A stretch of DNA of 55,585 nucleotides from Vicinamibacterales bacterium (GCA_036274235.1 DASUGC010000111.1:1-55585); one strand, 5' to 3'. Numbered from the stretch's first letter, positions 15,979-54,244 are shown. Notes: a model not told the origin generated them from the letters alone. Made by a program: numbers and translations.

Positions 15979-16079
15979 CTCACGGCCCGTCGTGACCCCG
16001 CTCTCGACGGCTGGCCAGGTTCGCCGCCGTCTCATTAATTAGTTTCTCCTCAACCAGCGCATTTCGGTCCAACCGGCGT

Positions 16080-16094
16080 TGGCCCGACTCTTGC
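16080..16094 (+). promoter_or_regulatory. candidate sigma-54 (-24/-12) promoter TGGCCCgactcTTGC
   Basis: It matches TGGCAC-N5-TTGC with one mismatch and correct GG-N10-GC spacing. It is intergenic, 45 nt upstream of the OMP start at 16139. Confidence 0.5.
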
Positions 16095-16138
16095 CCCTGC
16101 TCCGGCGGGTGTTCGTCATCCAAAGGAGCCATCAACGT

Positions 16139-19203: not shown

Positions 19204-19247
19204 CGGCCGACACCCCGCAAGGATCGCGCCACCGTCGTGTCGGCCGA
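19203..19247 (-). promoter_or_regulatory. 11-bp perfect inverted repeat abutting the DUF481 start codon
   Basis: TCGGCCGACAC (19203-19213) and GTGTCGGCCGA (19237-19247) are separated by 23 nt. On the minus-strand mRNA the 3' arm ends at the A of the ATG. Confidence 0.35.
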
Positions 19248-19397
19248 TGGGGCAGGCCCAAGGGGACGGCTGACGGCCTCGAAACCAAAAGTCACGGCCC
19301 ATTGTGAGGGCGGGTGCCATCGCGTGGTTGGCGTCAGCCGAAAAGCCGCGGTCGGATTGAGGTTGTACTGATTAGCGGGAATGGGAATAATGCGGAC

Positions 19398-21321: not shown

Positions 21322-21487
21322 AGCCCGATTATCCATGCCAGTTGGATGCCGTACGACGCCGATTGGCCTGGACGGCGCGGCTCCGGCCTCTGACGGCCCA
21401 TCGTGATGATCCGGTGGCGGCCTCGACCGCTTGCCGTGAGAGCGGCCTGATCTCGCTCGAAACGCAAGAGCTTGCGAGCGGCTCGTC

Positions 21488-21502
21488 CGGCACTCTTTTT
21501 GC
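21488..21502 (+). promoter_or_regulatory. candidate sigma-54 (-24/-12) promoter cGGCACtctttTTGC
   Basis: GGCAC-N5-TTGC is exact apart from the first T. It lies in the divergent intergenic region, 66 nt upstream of ATG 21568 and 15 nt upstream of in-frame GTG 21517. Confidence 0.5.
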
Positions 21503-21567
21503 CCCTTGCGGTGGCCGTGAACTATCGAACTGCAGACGGAGTCTGCCTGAGTATCCGGGCTTCGGCC

Positions 21568-23115
21568 ATGGTGTTCGTGCTGGCCGCGGTGCCCGGGGCC
21601 GCGCAAGGCCAATCCAATGAACAGGCGCCCACCGAGGTGGCGTGCACATCGACGGCAGGGACGCGTGCCGAATGTCCGGCCAACGCCTCAGCGGGCGCGG
21701 TGCTTCTGAAATCGACGAGCCCGGCGCGTTGTGAGCTGGGAAAGACGTGGGGGTTCGACGACACGCGGATCTGGGTGAGTGACGGTTGCTCGGCGACGTT
21801 TGCGGTGGCGCAAGCCCCGCCCGTTCCGGCGCCAACCCCTGCGCCTGATCCGGCCCCGCCGCAAACCGGCAAGACCGGATTTCTGTCGGCGCCTCCGCCC
21901 AAGCAGGGTGCGGAGCAGATTGAGACCTGGGGCGAGTTCGACCCCGGCAAGGGCTTCCTCGTCGGCCGCAGCGACGCCGGCGAACTCGAGATCAGCGCGT
22001 ACGGGTTGATTCGCTACATGAACCAGATGCCGGCGCACGCGACCTTTCTCGACCATCTCGGGAACGAACGGACCGTGGACGGGCGCAACGATCTCTATCC
22101 GCACCGCATCATGGTCTTTTTCAAAGGCTGGCTCGGCAACGAGAAGCTCGTCTACAACATTTTTTTCTGGACCGTGAATCCGACCGATCAGAAGAACTTT
22201 TTCGCCACCGTCGGCTACCAGTTCGGCAAGCGCTTCAGTCTGTATGCCGGTCTGAACGGTTTGCCCGGGACGCGCTCGCTGCAAGGATCGCATCCGTACT
22301 GGCTCGGCCACGATCGCGTCATGGCGGACGAGTTCTTTCGTCCGTACTTTTCCAACGGCATCTGGGCCCAGGGCCAATTGACGCCTGGACTCTGGTACAA
22401 CGTCATGGCCTCGAACAACCTCAGCGCGCTCGGCATCAAGGCGACTCAGCTCGATCGCAAGTGGGGCTGGGGCGGGTCGGCCTGGTGGATGCCGACTACG
22501 AAGGAATTCGGTCCCCGCGGCGGCTACGGCGACTGGGAATATCACGACAAGCTCGCCACGCGAATCGGCGTGTCGACGACCTACAGCCCGGAAGAGCGCT
22601 ACACGGACGCCAACACGGGCGGGACCGGCAACACGACGGTCAAGCTGGCCGACAGCCTGAACATTTTCGATACCGGCGCGCTGGCGCCGGGCGTGACCGT
22701 GAACTACGTGGACTACCGCCTGCTCTCCATCGACGCCGGCCTGAAATACAAGGGCATCTTTCTGCAGACGGAACTCTATTTTCGCGAATTGGACCTGTTC
22801 CGGGCGGACGGCCCGCTGCCGCTCAGCGACATTCACGACAAGGGCTTCTACGTCCAGGGCGCGTTCTTCCCGATCAAGAAGAAGATTGAGGTGTACGCGG
22901 CCACGTCGCAGATCTACGGCGACAAGAGCAACGGCTTCAGCAACGCCAGCGAGTACATCGCGGGCGGCAACTGGTATCCGTTCGACACGCGCAATCACCG
23001 GCTCAACCTGCAGTACCAGAAGGTCAATCATTCACCGGTGAGCAGCACGTTCGGCTACTACGTCGGCGGCCAGACCGGCCACACGTTCTCGACGGCGTTT
23101 TCGGTCTTCTTCTAA
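21568..23115 (+). CDS. fusion of an N-terminal Cys-rich DUF3011-like domain and a large porin-like beta-barrel
   Basis: The N-terminus VACTSTAGTRAECPANASAGAVLLKSTSPARCELGKTWGFDDTRIWVSDGCSATFAV matches the DUF3011 pattern (C..C..C..WG.d..giWV..GC.a.F). A Pro-rich linker APPVPAPTPAPDPAPPQ follows, then about 400 aa of barrel ending TFSTAFSVFF. The start is uncertain: ATG 21568, or in-frame GTG 21517/21511. Confidence 0.65.
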   Translation: MVFVLAAVPGAAQGQSNEQAPTEVACTSTAGTRAECPANASAGAVLLKSTSPARCELGKTWGFDDTRIWVSDGCSATFAVAQAPPVPAPTPAPDPAPPQTGKTGFLSAPPPKQGAEQIETWGEFDPGKGFLVGRSDAGELEISAYGLIRYMNQMPAHATFLDHLGNERTVDGRNDLYPHRIMVFFKGWLGNEKLVYNIFFWTVNPTDQKNFFATVGYQFGKRFSLYAGLNGLPGTRSLQGSHPYWLGHDRVMADEFFRPYFSNGIWAQGQLTPGLWYNVMASNNLSALGIKATQLDRKWGWGGSAWWMPTTKEFGPRGGYGDWEYHDKLATRIGVSTTYSPEERYTDANTGGTGNTTVKLADSLNIFDTGALAPGVTVNYVDYRLLSIDAGLKYKGIFLQTELYFRELDLFRADGPLPLSDIHDKGFYVQGAFFPIKKKIEVYAATSQIYGDKSNGFSNASEYIAGGNWYPFDTRNHRLNLQYQKVNHSPVSSTFGYYVGGQTGHTFSTAFSVFF

Positions 23116-30992: not shown

Positions 30993-31574
30993 ATGAAATC
31001 AGCCGGCTATCTCCGTCACGCCCTGACCCTCGTTGGAGCGGCGCTGCTTGCGACCACCACGGTCGCCGCGCAGAACGTTCCCGCGCGCAGCAAAGAAATG
31101 CTGATCTCCGTTATCGCGAAAGTCGAAGCCATCAACCACGCGACACGAGAAGTGACGCTCAAGGAGTCCTCCGGCCGTACGGAAACGTTCACCGTGGACA
31201 AGCGGGTGACGCGGCTGGATGAAGTCAAAGTCGGCGATCAGGTCATCGCCGAGTACTACGTGGCGTTTGCCGCCGAACTGCGGGCTCCCACCGCGGAAGA
31301 GAAGGCGAATCCCTGGCAGGTGCTGTCCACGACGGCGAAGGCGCCCGCGGGCACTCAGCCGGCTGCCGGCTCGCTGCGCATGGTCAAGGCCGTGGTGACG
31401 GTCGAAGGCCTGGACAGGCTGACCAGGTCGATCACCGTGTCGGGCAAGACCGGAATTCTGACCGTGGAGGTCGAGGACGTGGCCGCCCTCTCCAAGCTCC
31501 ACCTGGGCGACACCATCGTCGTGACGTTTACCGAGGCGCTGGCTGTTTCGCTGGAAAAGCGGCCTGCCAGGTAG
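30993..31574 (+). CDS. hypothetical periplasmic protein with an internal tandem duplication
   Basis: Signal peptide is ALTLVGAALLATTTVAAQ. Two similar ~60-aa units are present (VIAKVEAINHATREVTLKESSGRTETFTVDKRVTRLDEVKVGDQVIAEY and VKAVVTVEGLDRLTRSITVSGKTGILTVEVEDVAALSKLHLGDTIVVTF). Confidence 0.6.
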   Translation: MKSAGYLRHALTLVGAALLATTTVAAQNVPARSKEMLISVIAKVEAINHATREVTLKESSGRTETFTVDKRVTRLDEVKVGDQVIAEYYVAFAAELRAPTAEEKANPWQVLSTTAKAPAGTQPAAGSLRMVKAVVTVEGLDRLTRSITVSGKTGILTVEVEDVAALSKLHLGDTIVVTFTEALAVSLEKRPAR

Positions 31575-31665
31575 CCGGGTCGTGCCTGGAAACGAACGTC
31601 CGTGGGACAGGTCATTGCCGGCTGTGGCCTTCGACTATTTCTGTCGAAAAAGCCCGCGCCGCTCA

Positions 31666-31680
31666 TGGCCTGACTTTTGC
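31666..31680 (+). promoter_or_regulatory. candidate sigma-54 (-24/-12) promoter TGGCCTgacttTTGC
   Basis: It has GG-N10-GC spacing and lies directly upstream of mini-STAS paralogue 1. It contains an in-frame stop (TGA 31671-31673), so it is non-coding. A near-identical motif precedes paralogue 2. Confidence 0.5.
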
Positions 31681-31685
31681 TCGGA

Positions 31686-31964
31686 GTGAATGTCGTGGAT
31701 TGCTGGATTGGCGTCATCCATGAGGCAGACAAATGCGTGGTCCGTGTCGCGGGCACGCTGACGCGGGCGCAGGTGCCCGAACTGGCCAAGGCCTGCGCGA
31801 ATTGCGGCGTTCTCGTGCTGGATCTGCAGGATCTCGTCAATGCCGACGCGGCGGGCATCGATGCCATTCGCGGCTTTCGCGGCTCGGGCGCCACGCTGGT
31901 CGGAGCCAGCGGCTACATCCAGATCAAGATCGATTCGGCCGTCGCCGGGTCGCGGCCGGCCTAG
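31686..31964 (+). CDS. mini STAS-like protein, paralogue 1
   Basis: About 90 aa: (M)NVVDCWIGVIHEADKCVVRVAGTLTRAQVPELAKACANCGVLVLDLQDLVNADAAGIDAIRGFRGSGATLVGASGYIQIKI. The beta-alpha pattern and the LDL..L..aDaaGi segment resemble MlaB/SpoIIAA STAS folds. The start is ambiguous (TTG 31677, GTG 31686, GTG 31695). An in-frame TGA at 31671 blocks extension further 5'. Confidence 0.6.
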   Translation: MNVVDCWIGVIHEADKCVVRVAGTLTRAQVPELAKACANCGVLVLDLQDLVNADAAGIDAIRGFRGSGATLVGASGYIQIKIDSAVAGSRPA

Positions 31965-31985
31965 AAACGGAAAAACGGCAGGGCC

Positions 31986-32037
31986 GTACCCGTCGTACCC
32001 GTCGCCCGTCGTACGTGTCGTACCCGTCGTACCTGTT
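31986..32037. repeat. tandem 9-bp repeat array GTACCCGTC (about 6 units, degenerate), intergenic
   Basis: gtacccgtc gtacccgtc gcccgtc gtacgtgtc gtacccgtc gtacctgtt. It lies between the convergent mini-STAS (stop 31964) and sigma-54 activator (stop 32036-32038). Confidence 0.85.
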
Positions 32038-33688
32038 ACGCCGTCGGCCGTATCACGCCGAGCTTCTTCATGCGGAATCGCAGGGTGTTCGGGTGGATCC
32101 CGAGCCGTTCCGCCGCATTGTCCTTGCCGTTGATCCGCCAACTGCACTCATTCAGCACGGCTTCGATGTGTGCGCGTTGAACGGCATCGAGACTGTCGCC
32201 GTCAAGCTGCCGGACGGGACGTTTTCCTTCCATGAATGACTCGTCGAGCTGCAGGACTCCGCCGCCCGATCCGATCATGGCGCGCTCGATGACATTGTCC
32301 AGCTCGCGGACATTGCCCGGCCACGTATGCTGCTGGAGCGCCCGCATGACGGACGTCGGGACTTCCGTGATGCGCCTTCCCAGCTCGCGCTGATGGCGGT
32401 TGATCAGGAACCAGACGAGCCGCGGAATATCCTCGGGACGTTCCTTCAGCGAGGGAAGGCGGATCGGATAGACGCTCAGGCGGTAATACAGATCCGCGCG
32501 GAACCGGCCTTCCGCAACCGCGGCTTCCAGATCCTGATGCGTGGCCGCGATGACGCGGACGTCGACTTTGCGCGTCCGTGACGATCCGACGCGCTCGAAT
32601 TCGCCTTCTTGAAGCACGCGGAGGAACTTGACCTGGACTTCCGGCGACAGGTCGCCGATTTCGTCGAGGAAGATCGTCCCCCCGTCCGCCACTTCGAATC
32701 GGCCCTGCCGCAGCCCGACCGCCCCTGTGAACGCGCCCTTTTCATGGCCGAACAATTCACTCTCGACAAGCGTCGGGGGCAGCGCGGCGCAATTGACCCG
32801 GACGAGCGATCGCGCGTGCCGGCGGCTCCGCGCGTGCAGCGCCCGGGCGAACAGCTCCTTGCCGGTGCCGGTCGGTCCGGTCAGCAGGACGGTGGAATTG
32901 GTGGGCGCCACGAGATTGACACGCGTAAGGGCGACCTTCAAGGCCGCGCTTTCGCCGACGATGTCGTCAAAGTCGTGGTAGTTCTTGATTTCTTCTTTCA
33001 GGTAGACGTTGTCGGCCTGCAGCCGCGCATTGAGCTCCTGGATCACCACGACGTTCGAGCGCAACGCGCTCTCGTTGATCCGGGTATGCAGGGCGGCGCT
33101 GAAAATGTCCGCCATGAGCCGGAGCCGCGTGACGCACGGATTCGGCCACGGCCGATCCGCGCGGTAGGCTTGCAGGACCAGCGCGCAAATCACATTGGGA
33201 TTCGGCGCCGCGGGCACGCCCAGGATGGAGCAGGCGCCGGTCCGCTGAGCGAGCTCGCGCGCCCACACCGCGTCAATGGGCAGATCCTTCGCCGCTTCAA
33301 TCACCACCGACTCGCCCCGGGCCAGAGGCTCGGTCAGCCAGTCTTCTATCAGCACCGTCGGATCGATTCCATCGATCGGCGCGCTGGCGAATGTATCGGC
33401 GACGGTACCGGTCGTCGAGAACTGCACGAGCTGGCAGCCGTCGGCACCGGTTGCGGCGGAGATCTCATCGAGCGTTTCGATGATGGCGGGAGCAAGTTCG
33501 AGATCGTGGGCTCGGGTGAGCCGCGTGGATGCGTTTACCGCCAACTCGACGAGCTTGTCGGCGAGGGTGTCCGGGAAGTTGGGCGAGGGAATGCTGGTGG
33601 CCACCGAGGGATGGTAGCCATGCCTCCGGGCGAGTTGAAGGTACTTCTTCCGACCAGCCGGGACCGTAAATCTACTGATCGAAGTCAA
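32036..33688 (-). CDS. sigma-54-dependent transcriptional activator with N-terminal GAF domain (Fis-type HTH)
   Basis: 550 aa. The AAA+ core has Walker A LLTGPTGTGKELFARALH, the GAFTGA loop in ESELFGHEKGAFTGA, and Walker B IFLDEIGDL. The C-terminal HTH is AAERLGIHPNTLRFRMKKLG. The N-terminal ~190 aa are GAF-like. Confidence 0.92.
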   Translation of the reverse strand: MTSISRFTVPAGRKKYLQLARRHGYHPSVATSIPSPNFPDTLADKLVELAVNASTRLTRAHDLELAPAIIETLDEISAATGADGCQLVQFSTTGTVADTFASAPIDGIDPTVLIEDWLTEPLARGESVVIEAAKDLPIDAVWARELAQRTGACSILGVPAAPNPNVICALVLQAYRADRPWPNPCVTRLRLMADIFSAALHTRINESALRSNVVVIQELNARLQADNVYLKEEIKNYHDFDDIVGESAALKVALTRVNLVAPTNSTVLLTGPTGTGKELFARALHARSRRHARSLVRVNCAALPPTLVESELFGHEKGAFTGAVGLRQGRFEVADGGTIFLDEIGDLSPEVQVKFLRVLQEGEFERVGSSRTRKVDVRVIAATHQDLEAAVAEGRFRADLYYRLSVYPIRLPSLKERPEDIPRLVWFLINRHQRELGRRITEVPTSVMRALQQHTWPGNVRELDNVIERAMIGSGGGVLQLDESFMEGKRPVRQLDGDSLDAVQRAHIEAVLNECSWRINGKDNAAERLGIHPNTLRFRMKKLGVIRPTA

Positions 33689-33804
33689 ATAATCTACGGT
33701 GGGCCGTCAGGGCCCCATCAGCGGATCGGGGCCAACCCTGAAAAGTCCGCCAGTCCAGGTATTTCCGCTACCATAGGCGGGCGGCTGGTCGCCTGGCCGA
33801 CGTC

Positions 33805-35997
33805 ATGCTGGTCCTGCGTCGTGCCCTGTTCACGGGATTGATGGTCACCGCGGCCCTCTTGCCGCCAGGGCGGACCACCACGCTCGCCCAATCGCCGGCG
33901 GCCATTTCGAGCTCGCCGCGCAGGTCGGTCCTCGTCCTGTACTCCACGCGGCGCGGGGGAGTGGTGGAGGCCGTCTCCGATCCGATTCTCCGCCGGATGA
34001 TCGTCGATGGCCTCAATGGCGCGGTCGATTACTTCCCGGAGACCATCGACATTCTCCGGGCGTCCGATCGCGGCTACCAGGAGGCGCTCGCCCACTTTCT
34101 GGCGCAGAAGTACGCCGATCAGAAATTTGATCTGTTCGTGGCGATCGGGGACGCGGCCTTTGCCTTCCTGAGCCGCTTCCGGGGTCACGGTGCGGTCGCG
34201 GTGCCATTCGTTTTCTCCGTGGCCACGGAAACGAAGCCCCCGCCGAACGCGACCGGCATCATCAGCGGTCCGCATTTCAGAGACACGCTTGAAAGCGCAC
34301 TGGCGCTGCATCCCGGCACCCGGAGGGTGGCCGTCATCAGCGGCGCCTCCCAGGTCGATCGCGACTACGAAGCTCAGGCGCGCGCGGAGTTCAAAGCGCT
34401 GGAGGGGCGTGTCCAGTTCGACTATCTGGGCGGGCTCCCCATTGCGGCGGCGCTCAACCGCGTGGCCCATCTGCCGCCGCATTCCATCCTGCTGCTCACG
34501 ACCTTTGCTGAAGACAGTGAGGGGCGGAATTTCACGACGCTCGACATCACCGAACGGCTCAGCAGGGCCGCCAACGCGCCGATGTACAGCTGGGTCAACG
34601 TCAGCCTGGGACAGGGCATTGTCGGCGGGCGGATGGCCAGCCAGGAAGTGCTGATCGCGCGGGCCGGAGACCTCGCGTTGCGCGTGCTCCGAGGCGAAGC
34701 GCCCGCGACCATCCCCGTTCAGAACGTCGATTGGACCACGACGCAGTACGACTGGAGGCAACTGCGCCGCTGGGGCATCGACGAGGCCCGGCTGCCGCGG
34801 GGCGCGCAGGTCCTATTCCGCCCGCAAACGATCTGGAAGCAGTACGGCAGCTACGCGCTGGCCGGCGGCGCGCTGCTGCTGCTGCAGGCCGGTTTCATCG
34901 TGACGCTGCTGATTCAGCGCGCCGGACGCCGGAAGGCGCAGATGGCGCTCCGTGAAAGCGAAGAGCGTTTTCGTCTGATGGCCGACACGGCGCCGGTCCT
35001 GATTTGGCGGGCGGGCATCGACAAGGGCTGTGATTTCTTCAATTCTCCGTGGCTCGAGTTCACCGGCCGGCCGCTGGAACAGGAACTGGGCACGGGCTGG
35101 ATGGCCGGCGTGCATCCGGAGGATCTTCAGGGATGTATCGATCAATATGCGGCGGCCTTCGAAGCGCGGCAGATGTTTCGGATCGAGTTTCGCCTGCGCC
35201 GAGCTGACGGCGAGTATCGCTGGCTGATGGACACGGGCGTGCCTCGATACGACGACCGGAACCAGTTCGCGGGGTACGTCGGATCCTGTATCGACGTCAC
35301 CGACTACCGGCAGGCGATGGAAGACTTCAGCGAGAGCCAGCGCCAGCAGCAACAGCTGGCCGGCAAGCTGATCGACGCGCAGGAGCGGGAACGCGCGCGC
35401 CTGGCGCGCGAGCTTCACGACGACATCAATCAGCAGCTGGCGGGCCTCGCCATCTTTCAGAGCGGCATCCGGCGCCGCGCCGAGCTGCCGGCCGGCGGCC
35501 TGAGTCTCGCGGCCGACCTGCGCTTCCTGCAGGAGCGCACCGCAACCGTCGTCGAAAGCATCCGCAGCATGTCGCGCGGATTGCATCCCGTCATGATTGA
35601 GCACGCCGGCCTTGTCGCCGCGCTGTCGGCGCATTGCCGCGAGCTCGAGCGCACCAGCCTGCTCAGGTTCGAGTTCACGGCCGAGGGCAATTGCGACAAA
35701 CTCGGTGCGGCCGCCCGCTTGTGCCTGTATCGCTCGGCACAGGAGGCCCTGCGCAATGCGGTCGCCCATGCCTCCGCCAGCCAGATTACGGTGCGGCTGC
35801 GCTGTGATGGACACAACGGGGAAGTCACGATTGCCGACGACGGCCAGGGCTTTGACGAGCGGGTCGTCCGACGGCAGGCTGACGGCCTTGGTCTCATCAG
35901 CATTCAGGAGCGCGCCCGCCTGGCCGGCGGCACCTTCTGCGTCGTGACGGAAAAAGGAAAGGGCTCGTCGATCACGGTCCGGATTCCGGTCCAGTGA
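33805..35997 (+). CDS. sensor histidine kinase (periplasmic ABC-substrate-binding-like domain, TM, PAS, HisKA_3, HATPase_c)
   Basis: 730 aa with a signal/TM segment, then ~300 aa of periplasmic domain (VLVLYSTRRGG.., FVAIGDAAFAFL..). TM segment YALAGGALLLLQAGFIVTLLI is followed by PAS (ESEERFRLMADTAPVLIW..EYRWLMDTGVPRYD). The HisKA_3 H-box is LARELHDDINQQLAGL, and the ATPase has G-boxes (DDGQGFD, GLGLISIQERA). Confidence 0.9.
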   Translation: MLVLRRALFTGLMVTAALLPPGRTTTLAQSPAAISSSPRRSVLVLYSTRRGGVVEAVSDPILRRMIVDGLNGAVDYFPETIDILRASDRGYQEALAHFLAQKYADQKFDLFVAIGDAAFAFLSRFRGHGAVAVPFVFSVATETKPPPNATGIISGPHFRDTLESALALHPGTRRVAVISGASQVDRDYEAQARAEFKALEGRVQFDYLGGLPIAAALNRVAHLPPHSILLLTTFAEDSEGRNFTTLDITERLSRAANAPMYSWVNVSLGQGIVGGRMASQEVLIARAGDLALRVLRGEAPATIPVQNVDWTTTQYDWRQLRRWGIDEARLPRGAQVLFRPQTIWKQYGSYALAGGALLLLQAGFIVTLLIQRAGRRKAQMALRESEERFRLMADTAPVLIWRAGIDKGCDFFNSPWLEFTGRPLEQELGTGWMAGVHPEDLQGCIDQYAAAFEARQMFRIEFRLRRADGEYRWLMDTGVPRYDDRNQFAGYVGSCIDVTDYRQAMEDFSESQRQQQQLAGKLIDAQERERARLARELHDDINQQLAGLAIFQSGIRRRAELPAGGLSLAADLRFLQERTATVVESIRSMSRGLHPVMIEHAGLVAALSAHCRELERTSLLRFEFTAEGNCDKLGAAARLCLYRSAQEALRNAVAHASASQITVRLRCDGHNGEVTIADDGQGFDERVVRRQADGLGLISIQERARLAGGTFCVVTEKGKGSSITVRIPVQ

Positions 35998-36127
35998 TGA
36001 CCGCCCCTTTCGGGCGTCGTGATAGCGGCTCACAGCCCGTTGTGAGATGGTGATGCACTGTTGACCCCATTACCAGGCGCCGCCACGAAAATCCGTGTCA
36101 AACCGCCTGCTGACCACAGCCGGTCCT

Positions 36128-36142
36128 TGGCCTGGGATTTGC
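36128..36142 (+). promoter_or_regulatory. candidate sigma-54 (-24/-12) promoter TGGCCTgggatTTGC
   Basis: It has the same TGGCCT-N5-TTGC architecture as 31666-31680 and lies directly upstream of mini-STAS paralogue 2. Confidence 0.5.
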
Positions 36143-36146
36143 CCCG

Positions 36147-36413
36147 ATGATCGCCCGCGTGGACTGCTGGATCGGTATCGTTCAGGATGGGAATCGTCGC
36201 GTGGTGCGTTTAGCCGGCCATTTGAGCGACGCCCACGTGCCCGACCTCCTGCGTGTGTGCTCAGACGGGCGCTCCGTGGATCTGGATGTGAGCGATCTCG
36301 TGTCAGCCGACGCCGTCGGCATCGACAGCCTCCGCCGGCTTCGGGACTCAGGCGCCACCGTCATCGGGGCCCACGGGATCATCCAGTTAAAGCTGGATCT
36401 GCCGAGCAGTTGA
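36147..36413 (+). CDS. mini STAS-like protein, paralogue 2
   Basis: 88 aa: MIARVDCWIGIVQDGNRRVVRLAGHLSDAHVPDLLRVCSDGRSVDLDVSDLVSADAVGIDSLRRLRDSGATVIGAHGIIQLKL. It aligns end to end with the 31686 gene at roughly 45-50% identity by eye. GTG 36159 (VDCW) is an alternative start. Confidence 0.6.
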   Translation: MIARVDCWIGIVQDGNRRVVRLAGHLSDAHVPDLLRVCSDGRSVDLDVSDLVSADAVGIDSLRRLRDSGATVIGAHGIIQLKLDLPSS

Positions 36414-36417
36414 AAAC

Positions 36418-36468
36418 GAGGCCGGGACTCATTTCCTGGTGAGCCATCAGGAAATGAGTCCCGGCCTC
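36418..36468. terminator. perfect 21-bp stem hairpin between convergent genes
   Basis: GAGGCCGGGACTCATTTCCTG (36418-36438), loop gtgagccat, then CAGGAAATGAGTCCCGGCCTC (36448-36468). It lies between the mini-STAS stop (36413) and the NarL regulator stop (36469). Confidence 0.65.
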
Positions 36469-37104
36469 TTACTCCATCGTCAGCTTGTTCTCAATCGCGT
36501 ATCGCACCAGCTCGGCCGTGGACCGCACGCCCAGCAGATCCATGATTTCGTACTTGTGGGACTCGACGGTCCGCGGCGAGACGTCCAGAATCGCCCCGAT
36601 TTCCTTCATCCGATGCCCCTTCAGGATCAGCCGCAGGACATCGCGCTGGCGCGGCGTCAGTTCGGGAACGGTCGCGTCCTCGCGCTGGCCCATGCGCTCG
36701 ACAACTTCGCGCGTCATGGCCGGTGTCAGATACAGCCGTCCCTGCGTGACGTGTTCGATGGCCGTGACCAGTTCGTCACCCGCCGAGTCTTTGAGCAGGA
36801 TCCCTGACGCTCCGGCCTTGACCGCGCGCGCCGCCAGATCCGGATCGCGGTGCATCGTCAACACGATGATCTTGCAGGGGAGATGTTCGGCCGTGATGCG
36901 CTCGATTGCTTCCAGCCCGCTCAGCCGCGGCATCGAGATGTCAGAAATGATCACGTCAGGCTTGAGCCGTCGCGCTTCGTGGACCAGCTCCGCCCCGTCA
37001 TTGACGGCGCCCACCAGGTTGAAGTCGTGCTCTTTGAGCAGGCTGACAAGCCCCTCTTTGACGATGGCGTGATCGTCGGCGACCAGAATCGTGGTCTTGC
37101 GCAT
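36469..37104 (-). CDS. NarL/FixJ (LuxR-type HTH) response regulator
   Basis: I trimmed it to ATG 37104 (MRKTTILVADDHAIVKEGL..). The receiver has DD and the phospho-acceptor in VIISDISMP. The C-terminal HTH is LTPRQRDVLRLILKGHRMKEIGAILDVSPRTVESHKYEIM. It is the likely partner of the HisKA_3 kinase at 33805. Confidence 0.92.
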   Translation of the reverse strand: MRKTTILVADDHAIVKEGLVSLLKEHDFNLVGAVNDGAELVHEARRLKPDVIISDISMPRLSGLEAIERITAEHLPCKIIVLTMHRDPDLAARAVKAGASGILLKDSAGDELVTAIEHVTQGRLYLTPAMTREVVERMGQREDATVPELTPRQRDVLRLILKGHRMKEIGAILDVSPRTVESHKYEIMDLLGVRSTAELVRYAIENKLTME

Positions 37105-37259
37105 GGTCACTGATCCTCTCCGCACACGCCGGAGCGGCGCACCGGCGACGGCGGTTGCCCGTTCGGGCGGTCGTCGCCCCACTCACAGCCGGCCGTGTCG
37201 GTTGTGCGGCGAGTCACTCGGCGAATCATATCGTGTCAATCGGGCGCTTGGGCATCCTG

Positions 37260-37275
37260 CGGCACAGGTTGTGCA
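37260..37275 (+). promoter_or_regulatory. weaker candidate sigma-54 promoter cGGCACaggttgTGCA
   Basis: GGCAC and GC are correctly spaced (GG-N10-GC), but the -12 element is gTGCA rather than TTGCA. It lies 51 nt upstream of the DUF4136 start at 37326. Confidence 0.35.
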
Positions 37276-37325
37276 CAAAAGCCCCGGAACAGGCCCTGCA
37301 CGGGCTTCTGTGGAGGATTGCATCG

Positions 37326-37823
37326 ATGAAACGCCTCGTTATCGTGATGGGCCTTCTGGTCGCGGCCGCCGTACTCGCCCAGGCGAGCCAGTTGAAATAT
37401 GGCGCGACCGTCACGGCCGACAAAGCCACTGATTTCACCAAGATCAAGACCTACGTCTGGCAGTCAGGCTGGGACGCGAATGACAAGAAGGTGCACGCCC
37501 AGATCGTGAGCGCCATCGACAAGGAGCTCAAGGACCTCGGACTCACGCTCAAACCGTCCGGGCCAAGCGATGTGATCGTGAAGTACGCGTCGCTGCGGCG
37601 CATCGACGTGCAGGCGGATGTCAGGGGCGACGCCGCATCGGCGCGTCAGCAGCTCGACGTCGGCACGCTCGTTGTCCAGATGCTGGACCCCGGCACCGGC
37701 AAGCAGCTGTTCCACGCGCGGGTTGAAAAACCCATCGAGCTGGGGCCGGATCAGGTTGCGGCGGCCATTTCGTCGGCTGTGGGCGACATCTTCGCGAAGT
37801 ACCCGACACGAGTGAAGAAGTAG
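37326..37823 (+). CDS. DUF4136 domain protein, paralogue 3
   Basis: I trimmed it to ATG 37326, with GGAGGA at 37312. Signal peptide MKRLVIVMGLLVAAAVLAQA is followed by DKATDFTKIKTYVWQ.., IVSAIDKELKDLGL..DVIVKY.., GTLVVQMLDPGTGKQLFHARVE. Confidence 0.7.
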   Translation: MKRLVIVMGLLVAAAVLAQASQLKYGATVTADKATDFTKIKTYVWQSGWDANDKKVHAQIVSAIDKELKDLGLTLKPSGPSDVIVKYASLRRIDVQADVRGDAASARQQLDVGTLVVQMLDPGTGKQLFHARVEKPIELGPDQVAAAISSAVGDIFAKYPTRVKK

Positions 37824-42579: not shown

Positions 42580-45507
42580 TTGGGTTTTTCCCGTCAACAA
42601 TTTGGCAATAAGCTACCCTTTGTCGAGCCCGTGACGACCCTGCGCCGAGTCCGATCGCTGTTCCATGTGGTGCTGCCGGTGGCGGTCGCCTCGATCCTGG
42701 TATTCCTCGCGATCGTCAACGTCGCGCTGGTCAAGTCGTGGAAAGGGGAGTTCGAAGACGGGGTCCTCTGGCAGACCGAGGGATCGAATGTCGTGGCCCG
42801 CGAGGTGGATCGATATGGGGCCGGCGCGCGCGCCGGCATTCAGCGCGCAGACGTGCTGCTCATGATCGATCGCCAGGAGGTCTCGAGTGCCGAGGGGGTA
42901 CAGGCGATTCTCCACCAGGCCAGCGGGGAGAGCCGGCCGCGCTACGTCGTGCAGCGGCAATCGGAAGCCGTGCCGCTCGATCTCGAGCTACAGCCCATGC
43001 CGCTCGTGCGCGCGGGACTGTATTACTCGGTCGCGATGGTGGGAATCCTGGCGATTGTCGTCGGCGCGTCGGTCCGCCTCCGCCGGCCGAACGATCGCGC
43101 GACGCTGCATTTCTTCTGGTTGACGGTCGCGTTTTTCGGCGTGATGGCCTTTACGCCGAGCGGCCTCTACAACCGGCTGGATTACTTCTTCGATTGGGCG
43201 GATCTGATCGCCCGGCTCGCTCTGCCGCCGCTGTTTCTGCACTTCGCCTTTGTCTTTCCCGAGCGCGCGGAACCGTGGCTGCGCCCCGGGCGGCAGTGGC
43301 TGCTGGTCGTCATCTACATTCCGGCGTTCGTGCTCGGCATCGCGCGCGTGCTGCTGATGACCGGCGCCGTGGCGAAGCCGGGCGCCGTGGCCGGCCTCGA
43401 GTGGATCGAGCGGTTGTCGCTGATCTATCTGGCCATCTGCCTGCTGGGTGGCCTGGCGGTGATGGTGCGCGCGCTGACGCGGCTCCGCTCGGTCACGGCG
43501 CGGCGTCAGCTCCGCTGGATTGTGTGGGGCTCGTCGCTCGGGGCCTTGCCGTTCATTCTGCTGTATCTGGTCCCGTTCCTGCTGGGACGCGTGCCGCGCG
43601 GCGCCGAGTACACCGCCGTCCTGCTCGGGTGCATTCCGCTGGCCTTTGCCTCGGCCATCGTCCGGTACCGGCTGATGGACATCGAGGTGATTATCAAGAA
43701 GGTCATGGTCGCGGCGGCGGCCGTGATCATGCTCGCGCTGATGTATGTGGGGCTGTCGTGGCTGCTCAACAGACTGCAGCTGCCGGGCGCGGACCAGACG
43801 AACAGCCGCTTCATGGCGCTGCTGGCGACGCTGCTCGTGGCGCTGGTGGCGCCCTGGATGTGGCGCGCGATTCAGGCCGGTCTCGATCGGCTCTACTACC
43901 GCGACCGCTATGACTATCGGCGGGCGCTGCTCAGCTTTACGCGCGATTTGAACAGCGATCTCGTGCTCAGCCGGCTCAGCCAGCGACTGGTCGATCGCAT
44001 TGCCGAAACACTGGGGATCGACCGCATCGCGCTGTTCCTGCCGGATCCGAAAGGTGAGAGCGGGCAGTTTCTGGCCTACGCCGCCGGCGGCCTGTCCATC
44101 GAAACCGTACGGCCGATCGTGTCGGGATCCGTCCTGGCGGTGCGATTGATGGACGGGCAAACCGTCGCCGTTGACGATCCGGTCGGGGCTCGCAGACTCA
44201 CCGGAGACGAGGGCTCGTCGTGGCGCGAAGCCGGCCTGTTCAGCTTCGTGCCGTGCGTGTCCAACGGGCTGACGATTGCCGTCATTGCCGTCAGCCGCCG
44301 GGCCCACGGTGAACCTCTCAGCAGCGAAGACATGAGCCTGCTGACCGCCGTCGCCGGCCAGGCGGCCACGGCGATTGAAAACGCGCGCCTCTATAGCCAA
44401 CTGCAGGACAAGGCCAACGAGATCGAAACCGTGCGTCAGTTCAACGCGAACGTCGTCGAATCGCTGACCGACGCGCTGGTCGTCGTGGACCTGCAGGATC
44501 GCGTCCTGCTCTGGAACCGCCGGGCGGAGACGCTGGTCGGCGTGGACAGCGCGCACGCGGTCGGCCAGCCGATCTCGGATCTGTTCGAGCGCCCGTTCCA
44601 CGACGCGGTTGTCGCGGCCCGGCGGGACGCGCCGTCGGGCACGACGCTCTTCCGCGTGCAGCTGTCAGCGGCCGCAGACGATCGACGCGAAGCGCTCGTC
44701 AACCTCGCCATCGCGCCGCTCGAACGCGATCGCGAGCAGGCGGGCTGGATCCTCGTCATCGCCGACGTCACCGATCGCGCGACGCTCGAGGAGCAGCTCC
44801 GATTGTCCGAGCGCATGGCCTCTATCGGCCTGCTCGCCGCCGGCGTCGCCCACGAGGTGAACACGCCGCTCACCGGCATTTCGAGCTTCACGCAGATGCT
44901 GCTGGATCGATCGGAGCCCGGCGATCCCCGCAAGGAACTGCTGGAAAAGATCGAACGCCAGACGTTCCGCGCGGCCAAGATCGTCAACAACCTGCTGAAC
45001 CTGGCGCGTCCGAATACGAGCGAGGCGCAGGCGGTGGACGTCAACGTGGTCATCGGCGACATCCTGTCGTTGCTCGAGCACCAGCTCCGGACCAGCCGGG
45101 TGCAGGTGCGCCGCGATCTGACCGATCAGGACGTGCCCGTGCGCGGCATCGAGTACAAGCTCCAGCAGGTGTTTCTGAACCTGTTTCTGAACGCGCGCGA
45201 CGCCATGCCGGGCGGCGGGTGGCTGTCGATCTCCACACGCGTGCGCGGGCGCGAAGTGCTTGTCGAGGTGTCCGACACGGGCGTCGGCATTCCGCCCGAG
45301 CATCTGGCGCGCATCTACGATCCGTTTTTCACGACCAAGGCGGAGGGCCGGGGCACGGGGCTCGGCCTCTCGGTCACGTACGGCATCGTGCAGGAGCACG
45401 GCGGCGTACTCGTCTGCGACAGTGCGCCGGGCGAAGGGACGAAGTTCCGGCTCGTGCTGCCCCTGGCCGCCGCCGAGGTTCCCCAACCCGAAGCGCAGCC
45501 TGGTTAG
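42580..45507 (+). CDS. multi-domain sensor histidine kinase (TM, PDZ, polytopic membrane region, GAF, PAS, HisKA, HATPase_c)
   Basis: 975 aa with a TTG start from the track; a nearby GTG (VTTLRR..) is possible. It has a PDZ-like segment (VVAREVDRYGAGARAGIQRADVLLMIDRQEVSS..) and about 7 hydrophobic helices. A GAF domain follows (..GLTIAVIAVSRRAHGEPLSSEDMSLLTAVAGQAATAIENARLY), then PAS. The H-box is GLLAAGVAHEVNTPL, and the N/G boxes are FLNARDAM, DTGVGIP and GTGLGLS. Confidence 0.9.
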   Translation: MGFSRQQFGNKLPFVEPVTTLRRVRSLFHVVLPVAVASILVFLAIVNVALVKSWKGEFEDGVLWQTEGSNVVAREVDRYGAGARAGIQRADVLLMIDRQEVSSAEGVQAILHQASGESRPRYVVQRQSEAVPLDLELQPMPLVRAGLYYSVAMVGILAIVVGASVRLRRPNDRATLHFFWLTVAFFGVMAFTPSGLYNRLDYFFDWADLIARLALPPLFLHFAFVFPERAEPWLRPGRQWLLVVIYIPAFVLGIARVLLMTGAVAKPGAVAGLEWIERLSLIYLAICLLGGLAVMVRALTRLRSVTARRQLRWIVWGSSLGALPFILLYLVPFLLGRVPRGAEYTAVLLGCIPLAFASAIVRYRLMDIEVIIKKVMVAAAAVIMLALMYVGLSWLLNRLQLPGADQTNSRFMALLATLLVALVAPWMWRAIQAGLDRLYYRDRYDYRRALLSFTRDLNSDLVLSRLSQRLVDRIAETLGIDRIALFLPDPKGESGQFLAYAAGGLSIETVRPIVSGSVLAVRLMDGQTVAVDDPVGARRLTGDEGSSWREAGLFSFVPCVSNGLTIAVIAVSRRAHGEPLSSEDMSLLTAVAGQAATAIENARLYSQLQDKANEIETVRQFNANVVESLTDALVVVDLQDRVLLWNRRAETLVGVDSAHAVGQPISDLFERPFHDAVVAARRDAPSGTTLFRVQLSAAADDRREALVNLAIAPLERDREQAGWILVIADVTDRATLEEQLRLSERMASIGLLAAGVAHEVNTPLTGISSFTQMLLDRSEPGDPRKELLEKIERQTFRAAKIVNNLLNLARPNTSEAQAVDVNVVIGDILSLLEHQLRTSRVQVRRDLTDQDVPVRGIEYKLQQVFLNLFLNARDAMPGGGWLSISTRVRGREVLVEVSDTGVGIPPEHLARIYDPFFTTKAEGRGTGLGLSVTYGIVQEHGGVLVCDSAPGEGTKFRLVLPLAAAEVPQPEAQPG

Positions 45508-45520
45508 GACCATCATCCAC

Positions 45521-46906
45521 ATGCCGACGACCAACGCATCCATCCTCGTCGTGGACGACGAGGAAATCATCAGAGAGGCGCTCGAAGCGCTGCTCACCGC
45601 CGAAGGCTATCGGGTCACGACGGCCGCGACCGGCCAGCAGGGACTCGACGCGATCGGCGCGAAGCCCGTGGATGCCGTACTGCTGGATCTGATGCTCCCG
45701 GACAAGACCGGGATCGAAGTGCTGGATGAAATCCGCCGGCAGGACGATGAGCTGCCGGTGATCATGATCACGGCCTACGGCACGATCGAGGGCGCGGTCG
45801 CCGCCACCAAGCAGGGCGCGTTCTACTACTTCACGAAGCCGTTCAAGAACGACGAGGTCCTGGCCGTCCTGCGGAACGCGATCGAACGCCGCCGGCTGGT
45901 CCGCGAAAACCGGGAGTTGCGCGATCGGTTGCGCGCCGGCGCCCACCGCTTTGACGACATCATCGGCGGCAGCGCGCCGATGCGGACCCTGTTCGATCTG
46001 ATCGCCCGCGCCGCGCCGAGCCGCGCGACGGCGCTGATTCAGGGCGAGAGCGGCACGGGCAAGGAACTGGTCGCGCGCGCGTTCCATCGCCGATCCGCGC
46101 GCGCCGACAAGCCGTTCATCACGGTCAATTCCGGCAACTTGCCGCCCGACCTGCTCGAGTCGAACCTGTTCGGTCACGTCAAAGGCGCCTTCACCGGCGC
46201 CGTGTTTCCGAAGCGAGGCCTGTTCGAGCTCGCGGACAAGGGAACCATCTTCTTTGACGAGATCGGCAACATCCCGATCGACACGCAGTCAAAGCTCCTG
46301 CGCGTGATTCAGGAGCGCGAGTTCATGCGGCTCGGCGGCGTGGACACGATCAAAGTGGACGTCCGGATCATCGCCGCCACGAACGTCAGCCTGAAGGACA
46401 TGGTGAAGCAGGGCAGGTTCCGCGAGGATCTGTTCTACCGGCTGAACGTGATTACCGTCGGCCTGCCGGCCCTGCGGGAGCGGCGCGAAGACATCCCGCT
46501 CCTCGTGCAGCACTTCCTGGACAAGTACGGCGAGGAGAGCCGGCGCGGCGCCCTGGTCATGACGCCGGAAGCCATGGACCGTCTGATGGCCTACGACTGG
46601 CCCGGCAACGTGCGCGAGCTCGAAAACGTGATCGAACGGGCGGTCGTGCTCTGCGCCGAACGTGAAATCGGCGTGGACCTGATTCCCGACCACGTCAGCC
46701 CGTTCCCCGTGCTGCCCGCGCCGGACGTCGCGATTCCCCCCGACGGCATCCACTTCCGCGAGGTCATCATCGGCCACGAACGCCGCTACATCGAAGCGGC
46801 CCTCGACGCCGCCGGCGGCGTGCAGAAAAAGGCCGCGGAGCTGCTGCACATCAAGGCGACGACGTTGAACGAAATGATCAAGAGATACGACATCCGCAGG
46901 AAATGA
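45521..46906 (+). CDS. NtrC-family sigma-54-dependent response regulator
   Basis: I trimmed it to ATG 45521 (MPTTNASILVVDDEEIIREAL..AVLLDLMLPD receiver). The AAA+ core has GESGTGKELVARAFH, the GAFTGA loop (FGHVKGAFTGA) and IFFDEIGN. The C-terminal Fis HTH is AAELLHIKATTLNEMIKRY. Confidence 0.93.
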   Translation: MPTTNASILVVDDEEIIREALEALLTAEGYRVTTAATGQQGLDAIGAKPVDAVLLDLMLPDKTGIEVLDEIRRQDDELPVIMITAYGTIEGAVAATKQGAFYYFTKPFKNDEVLAVLRNAIERRRLVRENRELRDRLRAGAHRFDDIIGGSAPMRTLFDLIARAAPSRATALIQGESGTGKELVARAFHRRSARADKPFITVNSGNLPPDLLESNLFGHVKGAFTGAVFPKRGLFELADKGTIFFDEIGNIPIDTQSKLLRVIQEREFMRLGGVDTIKVDVRIIAATNVSLKDMVKQGRFREDLFYRLNVITVGLPALRERREDIPLLVQHFLDKYGEESRRGALVMTPEAMDRLMAYDWPGNVRELENVIERAVVLCAEREIGVDLIPDHVSPFPVLPAPDVAIPPDGIHFREVIIGHERRYIEAALDAAGGVQKKAAELLHIKATTLNEMIKRYDIRRK

Positions 46907-54224: not shown

Positions 54225-54244
54225 GCGAACTCCTTTTTTTAAAC

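Follow-up and report, generated by a model that had tools for sequence, protein, structure and literature searches.

Several described systems resemble parts of the locus reported here. SpoIIAA and RsbV are small, single-domain STAS proteins in which the phosphosite, where helix 2 begins, lies between a conserved Asp and a conserved Gly, and which belong to a sigma/anti-sigma pair with a cognate GHKL kinase and a PP2C phosphatase. MlaB, another small STAS protein, is free of regulatory phosphorylation and has the job of binding the MlaF ATPase. In the PspF–PspA and HrpR/S–HrpV–HrpG systems, a small protein encoded next to its activator and under sigma-54 control feeds back. The activators NifA, FhlA, and NorR consist of a GAF-like domain, an AAA+ domain with the GAFTGA motif, and an HTH_8 domain, in that order, and are associated with phased palindromes ∼100 bp upstream of −24/−12 promoters. 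Sigma-54 has been studied almost exclusively in Proteobacteria and a few Firmicutes, where its promoters are followed by ordinary leaders and ribosome-binding sites; leaderless mRNAs have been described in actinobacteria, Deinococcus, and archaea, and for a few genes of proteobacteria. Here, a locus is described from a 55,585-nucleotide stretch of DNA (GCA_036274235.1, DASUGC010000111.1:1-55585; the window, at its full length) of a bacterium belonging to the Vicinamibacterales (Acidobacteriota), an abundant and barely studied soil order. It contains two genes for very small STAS proteins (mini-STAS), each behind a sigma-54-type promoter that ends only 14 or 16 nt before a GTG start codon, together with the gene of a NifA-like sigma-54 activator. 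On balance, the comparative evidence favors reading the mini-STAS genes as activator-dependent and near-leaderless, with products whose likeliest role is feedback on the regulators. All components are of known kinds (STAS fold, NifA-class activator, −24/−12 promoter, palindromic upstream activating sequence [UAS], leaderless mRNA). Apparently undescribed are a STAS subfamily under sigma-54 control with a sigma-54 activator as its constant partner, sigma-54 promoters routinely ending 12–17 nt from start codons, and a TCAC-N8-GTGA enhancer of an acidobacterial regulon. The literature searchable here held no description of leaderless sigma-54/rpoN transcripts or of STAS proteins with enhancer-binding proteins, and nothing relevant on Acidobacteria sigma-54 enhancers or Vicinamibacter sigma-54, which agrees with the initial annotation of the window in that no published account of such a module was found.

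The window has a G+C content of 65%, and its closest relatives are soil metagenome contigs and metagenome-assembled genomes (MAGs) of Vicinamibacterales/Acidobacteriota. The locus is laid out as follows:

31609-31630, no strand: degenerate palindrome AGGTCATTGCCGGCTGTGGCCT, which holds a 6/8 match to the dyad and is a putative weak UAS of mini-STAS copy 1
31666-31680, plus strand: sigma-54-type −24/−12 promoter of mini-STAS 1, TGGCCTGACTTTTGC, conserved in the related loci L001 and L002
31695-31964, plus strand: mini-STAS 1, 89 amino acids, GTG start (paralogy, alignment, structure model)
31975-32043, no strand: convergent gap between mini-STAS 1 and the activator gene, with a hairpin and tandem repeats
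32036-33688, minus strand: sigma-54 activator, 550 amino acids, GAF-like, AAA+ with GAFTGA, Fis-type helix-turn-helix (HTH; Pfam, PDB, and NCBIfam matches)
33805-35997, plus strand: sensor kinase, 730 amino acids, PAS, HisKA_3, and HATPase_c (Pfam)
36030-36045, no strand: enhancer dyad TCACAGCCCGTTGTGA, exact, its center 90 nt before the copy-2 promoter
36128-36142, plus strand: sigma-54-type −24/−12 promoter of mini-STAS 2, TGGCCTGGGATTTGC, conserved motif
36159-36413, plus strand: mini-STAS 2, 84 amino acids, GTG start (paralogy, homologues)
36418-36468, no strand: near-perfect 24-bp hairpin between the stop codons of mini-STAS 2 and the regulator, a likely bidirectional terminator
36469-37107, minus strand: NarL/FixJ-type response regulator with receiver and GerE HTH, 212 amino acids, ATG at 37107 (Pfam)

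The flanking genes are those named by the initial annotation: Pfam places the activator between the two mini-STAS genes, the HisKA_3 kinase divergent from it, and the NarL-type regulator at the end. The N-terminus of the kinase weakly matches a periplasmic-binding-protein-like domain. The order mini-STAS, activator (convergent), kinase, mini-STAS, NarL-type regulator (convergent), DUF4136 gene is repeated in L001 and L002.

Both TGGCCT-N5-TTGC motifs are exact at the positions at which they had been noticed, with the GG/GC geometry of sigma-54 promoters. An in-frame TGA (31671-31673) does lie inside the copy-1 motif, 24 nt before the GTG at 31695, and the GTG of the conserved VDCW sequence follows the C of TTGC at 15 nt in copy 1 and at 17 nt in copy 2, which leaves spacers of 14 and 16 nt. 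The copy-1 motif is kept in L001 (9972) and L002 (10002), with differing N positions. A total of 38 gene copies was compared (two each from the window, L001, and L002, the remainder from 29 species-representative genomes and two further metagenome contigs). GG-N8-TTGC was present in 33 of them, 12–17 nt before the start codon in 32 and 22 nt before it in one, against a background expectation of 0.005 for a slot of 15 positions; the nominal P of 1e-71 is overstated, as the gene copies are phylogenetically related. Across the 33 sites, GG and TTGC are invariant and the positions between them vary (consensus TGGC-gTGcGTc-TTGC), which is the pattern expected of a functional site. In the distant Gemmatimonadota relative L030, a perfect TGGCAC-N5-TTGC stands 17 nt before the ATG. 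Thus, the motif recurs in the same place upstream of orthologues and of distant relatives, a check named by the initial annotation. The enrichment it had also proposed to test was found in this slot (33 of 38 copies): by simple count over the window, the strict form TGGC-N7-TTGC is not enriched (four matches versus 2.1 expected from shuffled sequence). All four window matches are intergenic and directed at a start codon. A scan with the sigma-70 consensus gave no match near either small gene. Among the window open reading frames (ORFs) scanned with Pfam there is no rpoN; sigma-54 is implied by two proteins of the window with a Sigma54_activat domain (GAFTGA was checked in the GAF-like one).

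The GTG is taken as the true start of the mini-STAS genes because it is invariant in the Vicinamibacterales-type copies compared (33 of 33), because the codons behind it (2, 3, 5, and 6) vary synonymously, and because six loci offer no other in-frame start between the upstream stop codon and the GTG; in L005, a TAA directly precedes the GTG. Protein conservation begins exactly at this codon, and an ATG start was found among the family copies only in L030. The alternative in-frame starts of copy 1, GTG 31686 and TTG 31677 (the latter giving the longest form), lie within or close to the promoter, and that of copy 2, ATG 36147 (again the longest form), comes after the −12 element and still ahead of the predicted transcription start. 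At sigma-54 promoters, transcription usually starts ∼12 nt after the C of the −12 element. By this rule, the 5′ end is predicted near 31692 for copy 1 (3 nt ahead of its GTG) and near 36154 for copy 2 (5 nt ahead), and TTG 31677 and ATG 36147 would lie upstream of the transcription starts, as had been proposed. With only 14 and 16 nt between the −12 element and the GTG, such transcripts have no room for a Shine-Dalgarno sequence.

The distribution of Shine-Dalgarno sequences in the family fits this prediction. GGAGG is absent from all 32 promoter-proximal copies and present in five of the six others (Fisher 1.2e-5), where it sits 5–7 nt before the GTG. Those six are L005, L006, L007, L009, and the first copy of L018, all without an adjacent motif, and L021, in which the motif is 22 nt away. 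The tandem pair of L018 (8001 and 8572) combines both arrangements, as its first copy has a GGAGG Shine-Dalgarno sequence and its second the sigma-54 motif. The near-leaderless idea of the initial annotation thus gains support from the comparison of loci, and a leader of about five nucleotides or less is probable for the mini-STAS mRNAs. As in known leaderless mRNAs, the start codon would be at, or a few nucleotides from, the predicted 5′ end, and a Shine-Dalgarno sequence is lacking. Unlike these, the transcripts would arise from a sigma-54-type promoter, start invariably with GUG in the Vicinamibacterales-type STAS genes, and have a predicted leader of 1–5 nt rather than none.

The short spacing is not confined to STAS genes. 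Among 33 dyad-linked promoters of other genes (see below), nine have the first ORF-opening start 13–16 nt after the C of the −12 element, with a peak at 14. The remaining distances are scattered between 7 and 75 nt, and those of at least 22 nt are mostly accompanied by a GGAG-type Shine-Dalgarno sequence. Start distances in the regulon are therefore bimodal: 13–16 nt without a Shine-Dalgarno sequence, or at least 22 nt, mostly with one. A −12 element that ends 12–17 nt before the start codon predicts leaderless sigma-54 mRNAs and explains why gene callers misplace starts. In this family, automatic calls often pick a TTG or GTG in or beside the −24/−12 motif. The called starts in L002 (10001) and L033 (2292) lie inside the promoter (compare TTG 31677 and ATG 36147 of the window), and many database entries of the family carry 20–95 extra N-terminal residues. 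The starts of the family are probably mis-annotated systematically, owing to the missing Shine-Dalgarno sequence. The invariance of the GTG may itself reflect a constraint tied to the transcription start, or a deliberately weak initiation.

The best surviving alternative grants that the sigma-54 promoters are real and holds that the protein is made mainly from longer transcripts that read through from the gene in front, the 193–amino acid gene in the case of copy 1 and the kinase gene in that of copy 2. Translation would then start at GTG 31695 with the help of a GGAG at 31683-31686, or at ATG 36147, and the short sigma-54 transcript would be poorly translated or have another role. Both small genes do follow genes on the same strand with no strong terminator in between. 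A GGAG, GAGG, or AAGG 4-mer is present 7–8 nt before the GTG, inside the spacer, in the copy-1 lineage (similarly weak Shine-Dalgarno-like 4-mers occur in a minority of copies, window copy 1 included), and all three copy-2 orthologues have an in-frame ATG 12 nt upstream of the GTG; either element could serve read-through transcripts from the upstream gene. Moreover, GUG is weak as a leaderless start in model bacteria, E. coli among them. Most family members, however, have neither a Shine-Dalgarno-like sequence nor an upstream in-frame start, a full GGAGG is found only where the promoter is absent or 22 nt away, and the spacing of 12–17 nt persists in rearranged loci with differing upstream neighbors. 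That protein conservation sets in exactly at the GTG also speaks against this alternative. Read-through as the main source of the protein is thus considered unlikely, if the most serious of the competing explanations.

An inverted repeat, TCAC-N8-GTGA, accompanies most of these promoters. In 548 kb, 59 exact copies of this dyad were counted, 10-fold the number (5.6) that base composition would predict. An exact dyad is centered 48–110 nt upstream of 33 among the 73 exact TGGC-N7-TTGC motifs, and only four further pairs of dyad and motif lie within ±400 nt. The distances cluster at ∼48, 57–58, 68, 79, 89–90, 100–101, and 110 nt, which corresponds to a period of 10.5 bp (Rayleigh p = 4e-6; the loci are related, which makes the p-values generous). 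Such phasing on one face of the helix is what DNA looping from an enhancer-binding protein predicts. The dyad of copy 2, TCACAGCCCGTTGTGA, is kept at the same distance of 90 nt in L002. To judge from conservation and phasing, the motifs are very probably functional sigma-54 promoters with the TCAC-N8-GTGA dyad as their enhancer. The code is computationally predictable, and its helical phasing can be used to map the regulon in uncultured genomes.

A second conserved box, tCCAAcGnGTTGAGAC, with the palindrome CAAC-N2-GTTG inside it, occurs ∼4–6 nt upstream of the dyad at most single-copy mini-STAS promoters, near position 7860-7880 (L004, L008, L010, L011, L013, L015, L019, L022, L024, L026, L027, and L031). 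It is absent from the window copies and from L001 and L002. A (c/t)GAGAC element also precedes some dyads of non-STAS genes. The NarL-type regulator is one candidate binder of the tCCAAcGnGTTGAGAC box.

The three exact dyads of the window (15980, 19292, and 36030) are all intergenic, and each faces a −24/−12 motif. Together with two 7/8 dyads, they mark the following genes besides mini-STAS 2:

15980-16819, plus strand: outer-membrane protein (OMP) β-barrel gene, exact dyad at 15980-15995, promoter TGGCCCGACTCTTGC at 16080-16094
18163-19307, minus strand: DUF481 gene, exact dyad at 19292-19307, promoter TGGCGCGATCCTTGC at 19231-19217
21391-23115, plus strand: DUF3011 gene, 7/8 dyad at 21391-21406, promoter CGGCACTCTTTTTGC (CGGCAC-N5-TTGC) at 21488-21502
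37183-37823, plus strand: DUF4136 gene, a possible member, 7/8 dyad at 37183-37198, weak −24/−12-like TGGGCATCCTGCGGC at 37249-37263

As dyad and promoter also precede the OMP, DUF481, and DUF3011 genes, the mini-STAS genes appear to belong to a larger sigma-54 regulon, made up of envelope genes from one island. The spacer between promoter and ATG 19203 of the DUF481 gene is 13 nt, with identical geometry in L001; that between promoter and GTG 21517 of the DUF3011 gene is 14 nt, and both the spacing and the GTG-AAC start are kept in L001 and L002. Two starts are possible for the OMP gene: GTG 16109, with a distance of 14 nt to the promoter, and ATG 16139, with an AAGGAG Shine-Dalgarno sequence before it. 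The DUF481, DUF3011, and possibly OMP genes thus share the short spacing, which makes this geometry a trait of the regulon beyond the STAS genes. The DUF3011 gene is the first in a series on one strand that continues with amidohydrolase, DcaP porin, glutaminase, GH63-like, amylase-like, and 193–amino acid genes and ends just before mini-STAS 1; the OMP gene is followed by DUF4136 and unknown genes. In the DUF4136 gene behind the locus, TGGGCATCCTGCGGC is a weak TGGGCA-N5-CGGC, 58 nt from the dyad center, and the ATG at 37326 has a GGAGG Shine-Dalgarno sequence; its orthologue in L013 has TGGCAGAGTACTTGC with a dyad.

The activator encoded between the mini-STAS genes has Pfam matches to Sigma54_activat (PF00158, E 3.8e-70), the AAA lid, and HTH_8 (E 7e-8), carries GAFTGA in its translation, and has NifA as its best match in the PDB (E 8.5e-87). 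Among the NCBIfam models, NifA, FhlA, and NorR score best, and none of them reaches its equivalog cut-off (383 versus 528 bits for NifA, with an alignment that begins at residue 122). The N-terminal 220 residues give weak GAF signals: the Pfam GAF profile is covered over its whole length with E 0.042, and a profile of 15 orthologues matches the GAF domain of PtsP (3ci6) with E 1.4e-3, other GAF proteins matching more weakly. Thus, of the GAF-AAA+ sigma-54 activator claimed by the initial annotation, the AAA+ and sigma-54 part stands firmly, and the GAF part is weakly backed; a GAF-like N-terminus is suggested by these profiles and unproven. Despite its domain order and the phased palindrome upstream of −24/−12 elements, the system differs from that of NifA also in its site, TCAC-N8-GTGA instead of TGT-N10-ACA, and in a predicted regulon of envelope proteins, porins, and hydrolases. 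Conserved linkage makes the adjacent activator the rather likely binder of the dyad. In L018, TGGCGTCAAGATTGC at 7393-7379 on the minus strand stands 15 nt before the ATG of the activator orthologue, which hints at sigma-54-dependent autoregulation there; no dyad of at least 7/8 was found upstream of this TGGCGTCAAGATTGC.

The partnership of mini-STAS and activator genes extends well beyond the window. By tally, 23 of 32 loci have an activator orthologue at no more than 8 kb, and in 18 of these it is immediately convergent. Usually, a single mini-STAS gene faces the 3′ end of a convergent activator orthologue (60–67% identity), which is preceded on its own strand by genes for a CheY-like receiver and a NarL-type regulator, sometimes also by a kinase gene. 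In the distant relatives L028, L032, L034/L035, and the P0049 contig (42–49% identity), activator and mini-STAS genes are adjacent and co-oriented. A dyad-like site is kept in the short gap in L028, L032, and L034/L035, and GG-N8-TTGC stands 12–14 nt before the GTG in L028, L032, L033, and L034/L035. Conserved synteny, a test named by the initial annotation, therefore holds for mini-STAS plus activator and does not hold for the two-copy bracket with the kinase, which is restricted to the window, L001, and L002.

A neighbor-joining tree resolves the paralogous pairs as lineage-specific duplications, one in the window, L001, and L002, one as the tandem pair of L018, and one as the pair L011/L022. 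The latter two loci belong to one MAG (contig CAWBCA010000002.1), in which L011 is the copy next to the activator and L022 the copy next to a NarL-kinase operon. The idea of two ancient orthologous subfamilies, one linked to the activator and one to the NarL-type regulator, was rejected on the basis of this tree. As the duplications are lineage-specific and the gene is single-copy elsewhere, the conserved unit is one mini-STAS gene plus a NifA-like activator, and the two-copy bracket of the window is a variant of it. In L033 (4062-8573) and L035 (1055-2218), the co-oriented mini-STAS gene is followed by genes for RND efflux (membrane fusion protein, AcrB-like, outer-membrane factor), and the activator gene lies directly upstream of the mini-STAS gene in L034/L035. 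This suggests that the module controls different envelope functions in different lineages.

The two small proteins are paralogous over their whole length, as had been claimed (a gapless alignment of 80 residues, 51% identical and 76% similar, E 3e-30). Close homologues with 44–95% identity form 57 clusters, 19 for copy 1 and 38 for copy 2, and an exhaustive profile search retrieved 1,085 cluster representatives at E ≤ 1e-3, nearly all of 65–180 residues. Compared with the L002 orthologues, synonymous and non-synonymous codon changes number 22 and 10 in copy 1, and 32 and 4 in copy 2; both proteins are under purifying selection. The window proteins alone gave sub-threshold matches or none with NCBIfam and Pfam, and a sequence-profile search of the PDB returned SpoIIAA only marginally (E 0.04). 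The fold was hence established via the family alignment and a structure model. An AF2 model computed from a 51-member family alignment (pLDDT 87, pTM 0.73) has the topology β-β-α-β-α-β-α. The top 15 Foldseek matches in the PDB are all STAS or SpoIIAA-like, the best being SpoIIAA (1thn_B, TM 0.77), with RsbV (6m36), TM1442, a Haliangium antagonist, a DUF3478 protein of SpoIIAA-like fold, and MlaB (7ch7_E and 6xbd_K) among the others. Pfam STAS_2 (PF13466) is matched by 40 of the 51 family members at E ≤ 0.1 (best 6.8e-8); precomputed PF13466 matches exist for several homologues, and some are auto-annotated as “MlaB component.” The STAS fold proposed in the initial annotation is thereby borne out by model, structural matches, and relatives, and the mini-STAS proteins are almost certainly single-domain STAS proteins. 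One apparent family member, P0143 (2,127 amino acids), seemed to be a mini-STAS array with 15 matches to the family profile; it is a repeat protein with GA-like domains and was discarded as a false positive.

The family signature reads (V/M)-D/E-C-W/R-I ... A-G-x-L ... A-C ... L-x-S-A-D-x-x-G ... G. In the 147 best sequences, Cys3 is conserved to 95%, Cys34 to 92%, Gly20 to 100%, and Asp51 and Gly65 to 99% each. The position of the phosphorylated Ser58 of SpoIIAA corresponds, in a profile alignment, to Ala53 in copy 1 and to Val in copy 2. The serine is therefore lost from both proteins, as the initial annotation had it, and the replacement by Ala applies to copy 1 only. Position 53 is Ala in 60, Val in 43, Ile in 15, and Thr in 4 of 144 representatives. 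Genes for an anti-sigma kinase (HATPase_c_2) or a PP2C phosphatase were found neither at 30–38 kb of the window nor in L001 and L002. Thus, despite a small single domain, TM scores of 0.71–0.77, and the conserved Asp and Gly, the mini-STAS proteins differ from SpoIIAA and RsbV by having Ala or Val for the phosphorylated Ser, two near-invariant cysteines, and no cognate GHKL kinase or PP2C gene at the locus, and their genes are tied to a sigma-54-type promoter and an enhancer-binding protein instead of a sigma/anti-sigma pair. By these sequence features, the family is of STAS fold yet stands outside the phospho-regulated antagonists. With MlaB, it shares the small size, the missing regulatory phosphorylation, and the structural match. 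The neighbors in the window, L001, and L002 are activator, kinase, regulator, DUF4136, and porin genes, with no Mla transporter genes such as mlaFEDC among them; the neighboring ATPase is an AAA+ transcription activator, not an ABC subunit, and binding to it would be the counterpart of the MlaB–MlaF contact. The family is a STAS subfamily without phosphosite, of about a thousand sequence clusters, whose constant genomic partner is an AAA+ transcription activator.

Ordinary partner switching would nevertheless explain part of these findings. In that case, the mini-STAS proteins would be antagonists whose partner is either the HATPase of the adjacent kinase or the product of a distant gene, be it an anti-sigma factor or a GHKL kinase, and the activator would merely control their expression. 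The best structural matches are indeed SpoIIAA and RsbV in complex with their kinases, the kinase of the locus comes close to the HATPase_c_2 threshold (26.1 versus 27.4 bits), duplicates lie beside NarL/kinase genes in two independent lineages, and such circuits exist in the organism, as is evident from a canonical STAS gene in another part of the window. This explanation has to cope with a position 53 that is Ala, Val, or Ile, and phosphorylatable Thr in only 4 of 144 sequences, with the lack of an RsbW/SpoIIAB-type kinase or PP2C phosphatase gene at the locus, and with the fact that most loci lack the kinase and have the activator as their constant neighbor. It is therefore regarded as improbable.

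The following sequence of events is proposed. The activator would bind TCAC-N8-GTGA, a whole number of helical turns upstream of each promoter, and drive sigma-54 transcription of the mini-STAS genes and of an envelope/porin/hydrolase regulon, the mini-STAS genes being those members of the regulon that are most tightly linked to the activator gene. Their mRNAs, with a leader of no more than about five nucleotides, would be translated by the leaderless route. Once made, the mini-STAS protein would bind one of the system's regulators and adjust its output, comparable to PspA/PspF, HrpV/HrpS, and MlaB/MlaF. Candidate partners are the activator or, in lineages with two copies, also the kinase/NarL pair, and the cysteine pair might provide a redox or metal input. 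An invariant Cys66 (in the motif VD-C-QLVEF) is present in the GAF-like domain of the 15 activator orthologues; together with the two mini-STAS cysteines, this is suggestive of thiol chemistry. The likeness to PspA and HrpV, that is, an activator-adjacent small protein under sigma-54 control that may feed back, ends with the fold, as those proteins are not STAS proteins; PspF has no GAF-like domain, in contrast to the present activator, and here it is gene linkage that points to an interaction.

The steps of this proposal differ in strength. Feedback by binding of a regulator of the locus, argued by analogy, is conceivable but somewhat short of an even chance. The narrower version, in which mini-STAS is a dedicated, non-phosphorylatable partner of the sigma-54 activator, possibly with redox or metal sensing by its cysteines, in a leaderless feedback loop, is still more tentative. 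That version would give STAS domains a new job and, as far as could be found, make this the first regulon whose sigma-54 promoters routinely lie directly before start codons. If mini-STAS binds the activator, STAS partner switching would extend from sigma-70-family to sigma-54 control; otherwise, the family would still be a useful marker gene for a porin/envelope regulon.

Several observations weigh against the activator-dependent, near-leaderless reading as a whole. In roughly one locus out of four, the surrounding 8 kb contain no activator gene, and the statistics take related loci as independent. The window encodes a second sigma-54 activator (ORF 45260-46906), which is another candidate for binding the dyad. 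The dyad of copy 1 is degenerate (6/8, TCATTGCCGGCTGTGG, 31612-31627), its center lying 46 nt before the promoter; the orthologous dyad in L001, TCATGGCCTGCCGTGA, is a 7/8 match centered 48 nt upstream and fits the 48-nt phasing class. One-mismatch dyads are not enriched across the window (14 versus 21 expected), and only exact dyads were used, plus 7/8 dyads when paired with a promoter. Both window proteins remain below the Pfam STAS threshold (15 versus 22.6 bits for copy 1, no match for copy 2). A predicted leader of 2–5 nt is not leaderless in the strict sense, GUG is a poor leaderless initiator in E. coli, and the copy-1 4-mers and the upstream ATG of the copy-2 lineage have been mentioned above. 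Finally, starts, sigma-54 dependence, DNA binding, and protein interaction all rest on comparative inference.

The tail-to-tail arrangement allows for yet another effect of the mini-STAS promoters, namely, that transcription into the 3′ end of the activator or regulator gene lowers its expression by collision or antisense RNA, with the protein being secondary. Such an arrangement is found in 18 loci, with short gaps, 71 nt in the window and down to ∼10 nt in L012, and no plus-strand terminator with a T run follows copy 1. On the other hand, a 24-bp hairpin follows copy 2, the protein is under purifying selection with a conserved fold and invariant residues, and the co-orientation of activator and mini-STAS genes in distant relatives makes collision impossible there, all of which renders this explanation very unlikely. 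Chance or artifact, with small ORFs that do not represent genes and a GG-N10-GC motif that arose by coincidence in GC-rich DNA, as the unremarkable motif count of the window (4 versus a shuffle mean of 2.1) and the missing Pfam match of copy 2 might suggest, can be dismissed in view of 57 close homologues, 1,085 representatives, a confident STAS model, synonymous-dominated divergence, and the conservation of motif, dyad, and phasing across loci.

The convergent gaps of the locus have some structure of their own. The hairpin at 36418-36468 is 96% complementary and takes up precisely the gap from the stop codon of mini-STAS 2 to that of the response regulator gene. Imperfect tandem repeats of the CGTACCCGT type fill 31985-32043, in the gap that separates mini-STAS 1 from the 3′ end of the activator gene, and a terminator-like hairpin with a T run lies on the minus strand at 31987-31975. 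A search of 31000-37500 with Rfam found no RNA family, the only matches being spurious, miRNA-like ones on the terminator hairpin.

Farther downstream, the window contains a second sigma-54 system, composed of a PDZ-GAF-PAS-HisKA kinase (ORF 42580-45507) and the overlapping NtrC-type activator with receiver, AAA+, and HTH (ORF 45260-46906; both ORFs were called from the first possible start). It is followed on the opposite strand by a group-1 glycosyltransferase gene cluster (47058-52082). The canonical STAS gene with IDSAG, to which the initial annotation had compared the mini-STAS genes, is present at 53886-54233 on the minus strand (Pfam STAS, E 7e-17); this anti-sigma antagonist gene, a neighbor of a UbiA prenyltransferase gene, has no relation to the mini-STAS family.

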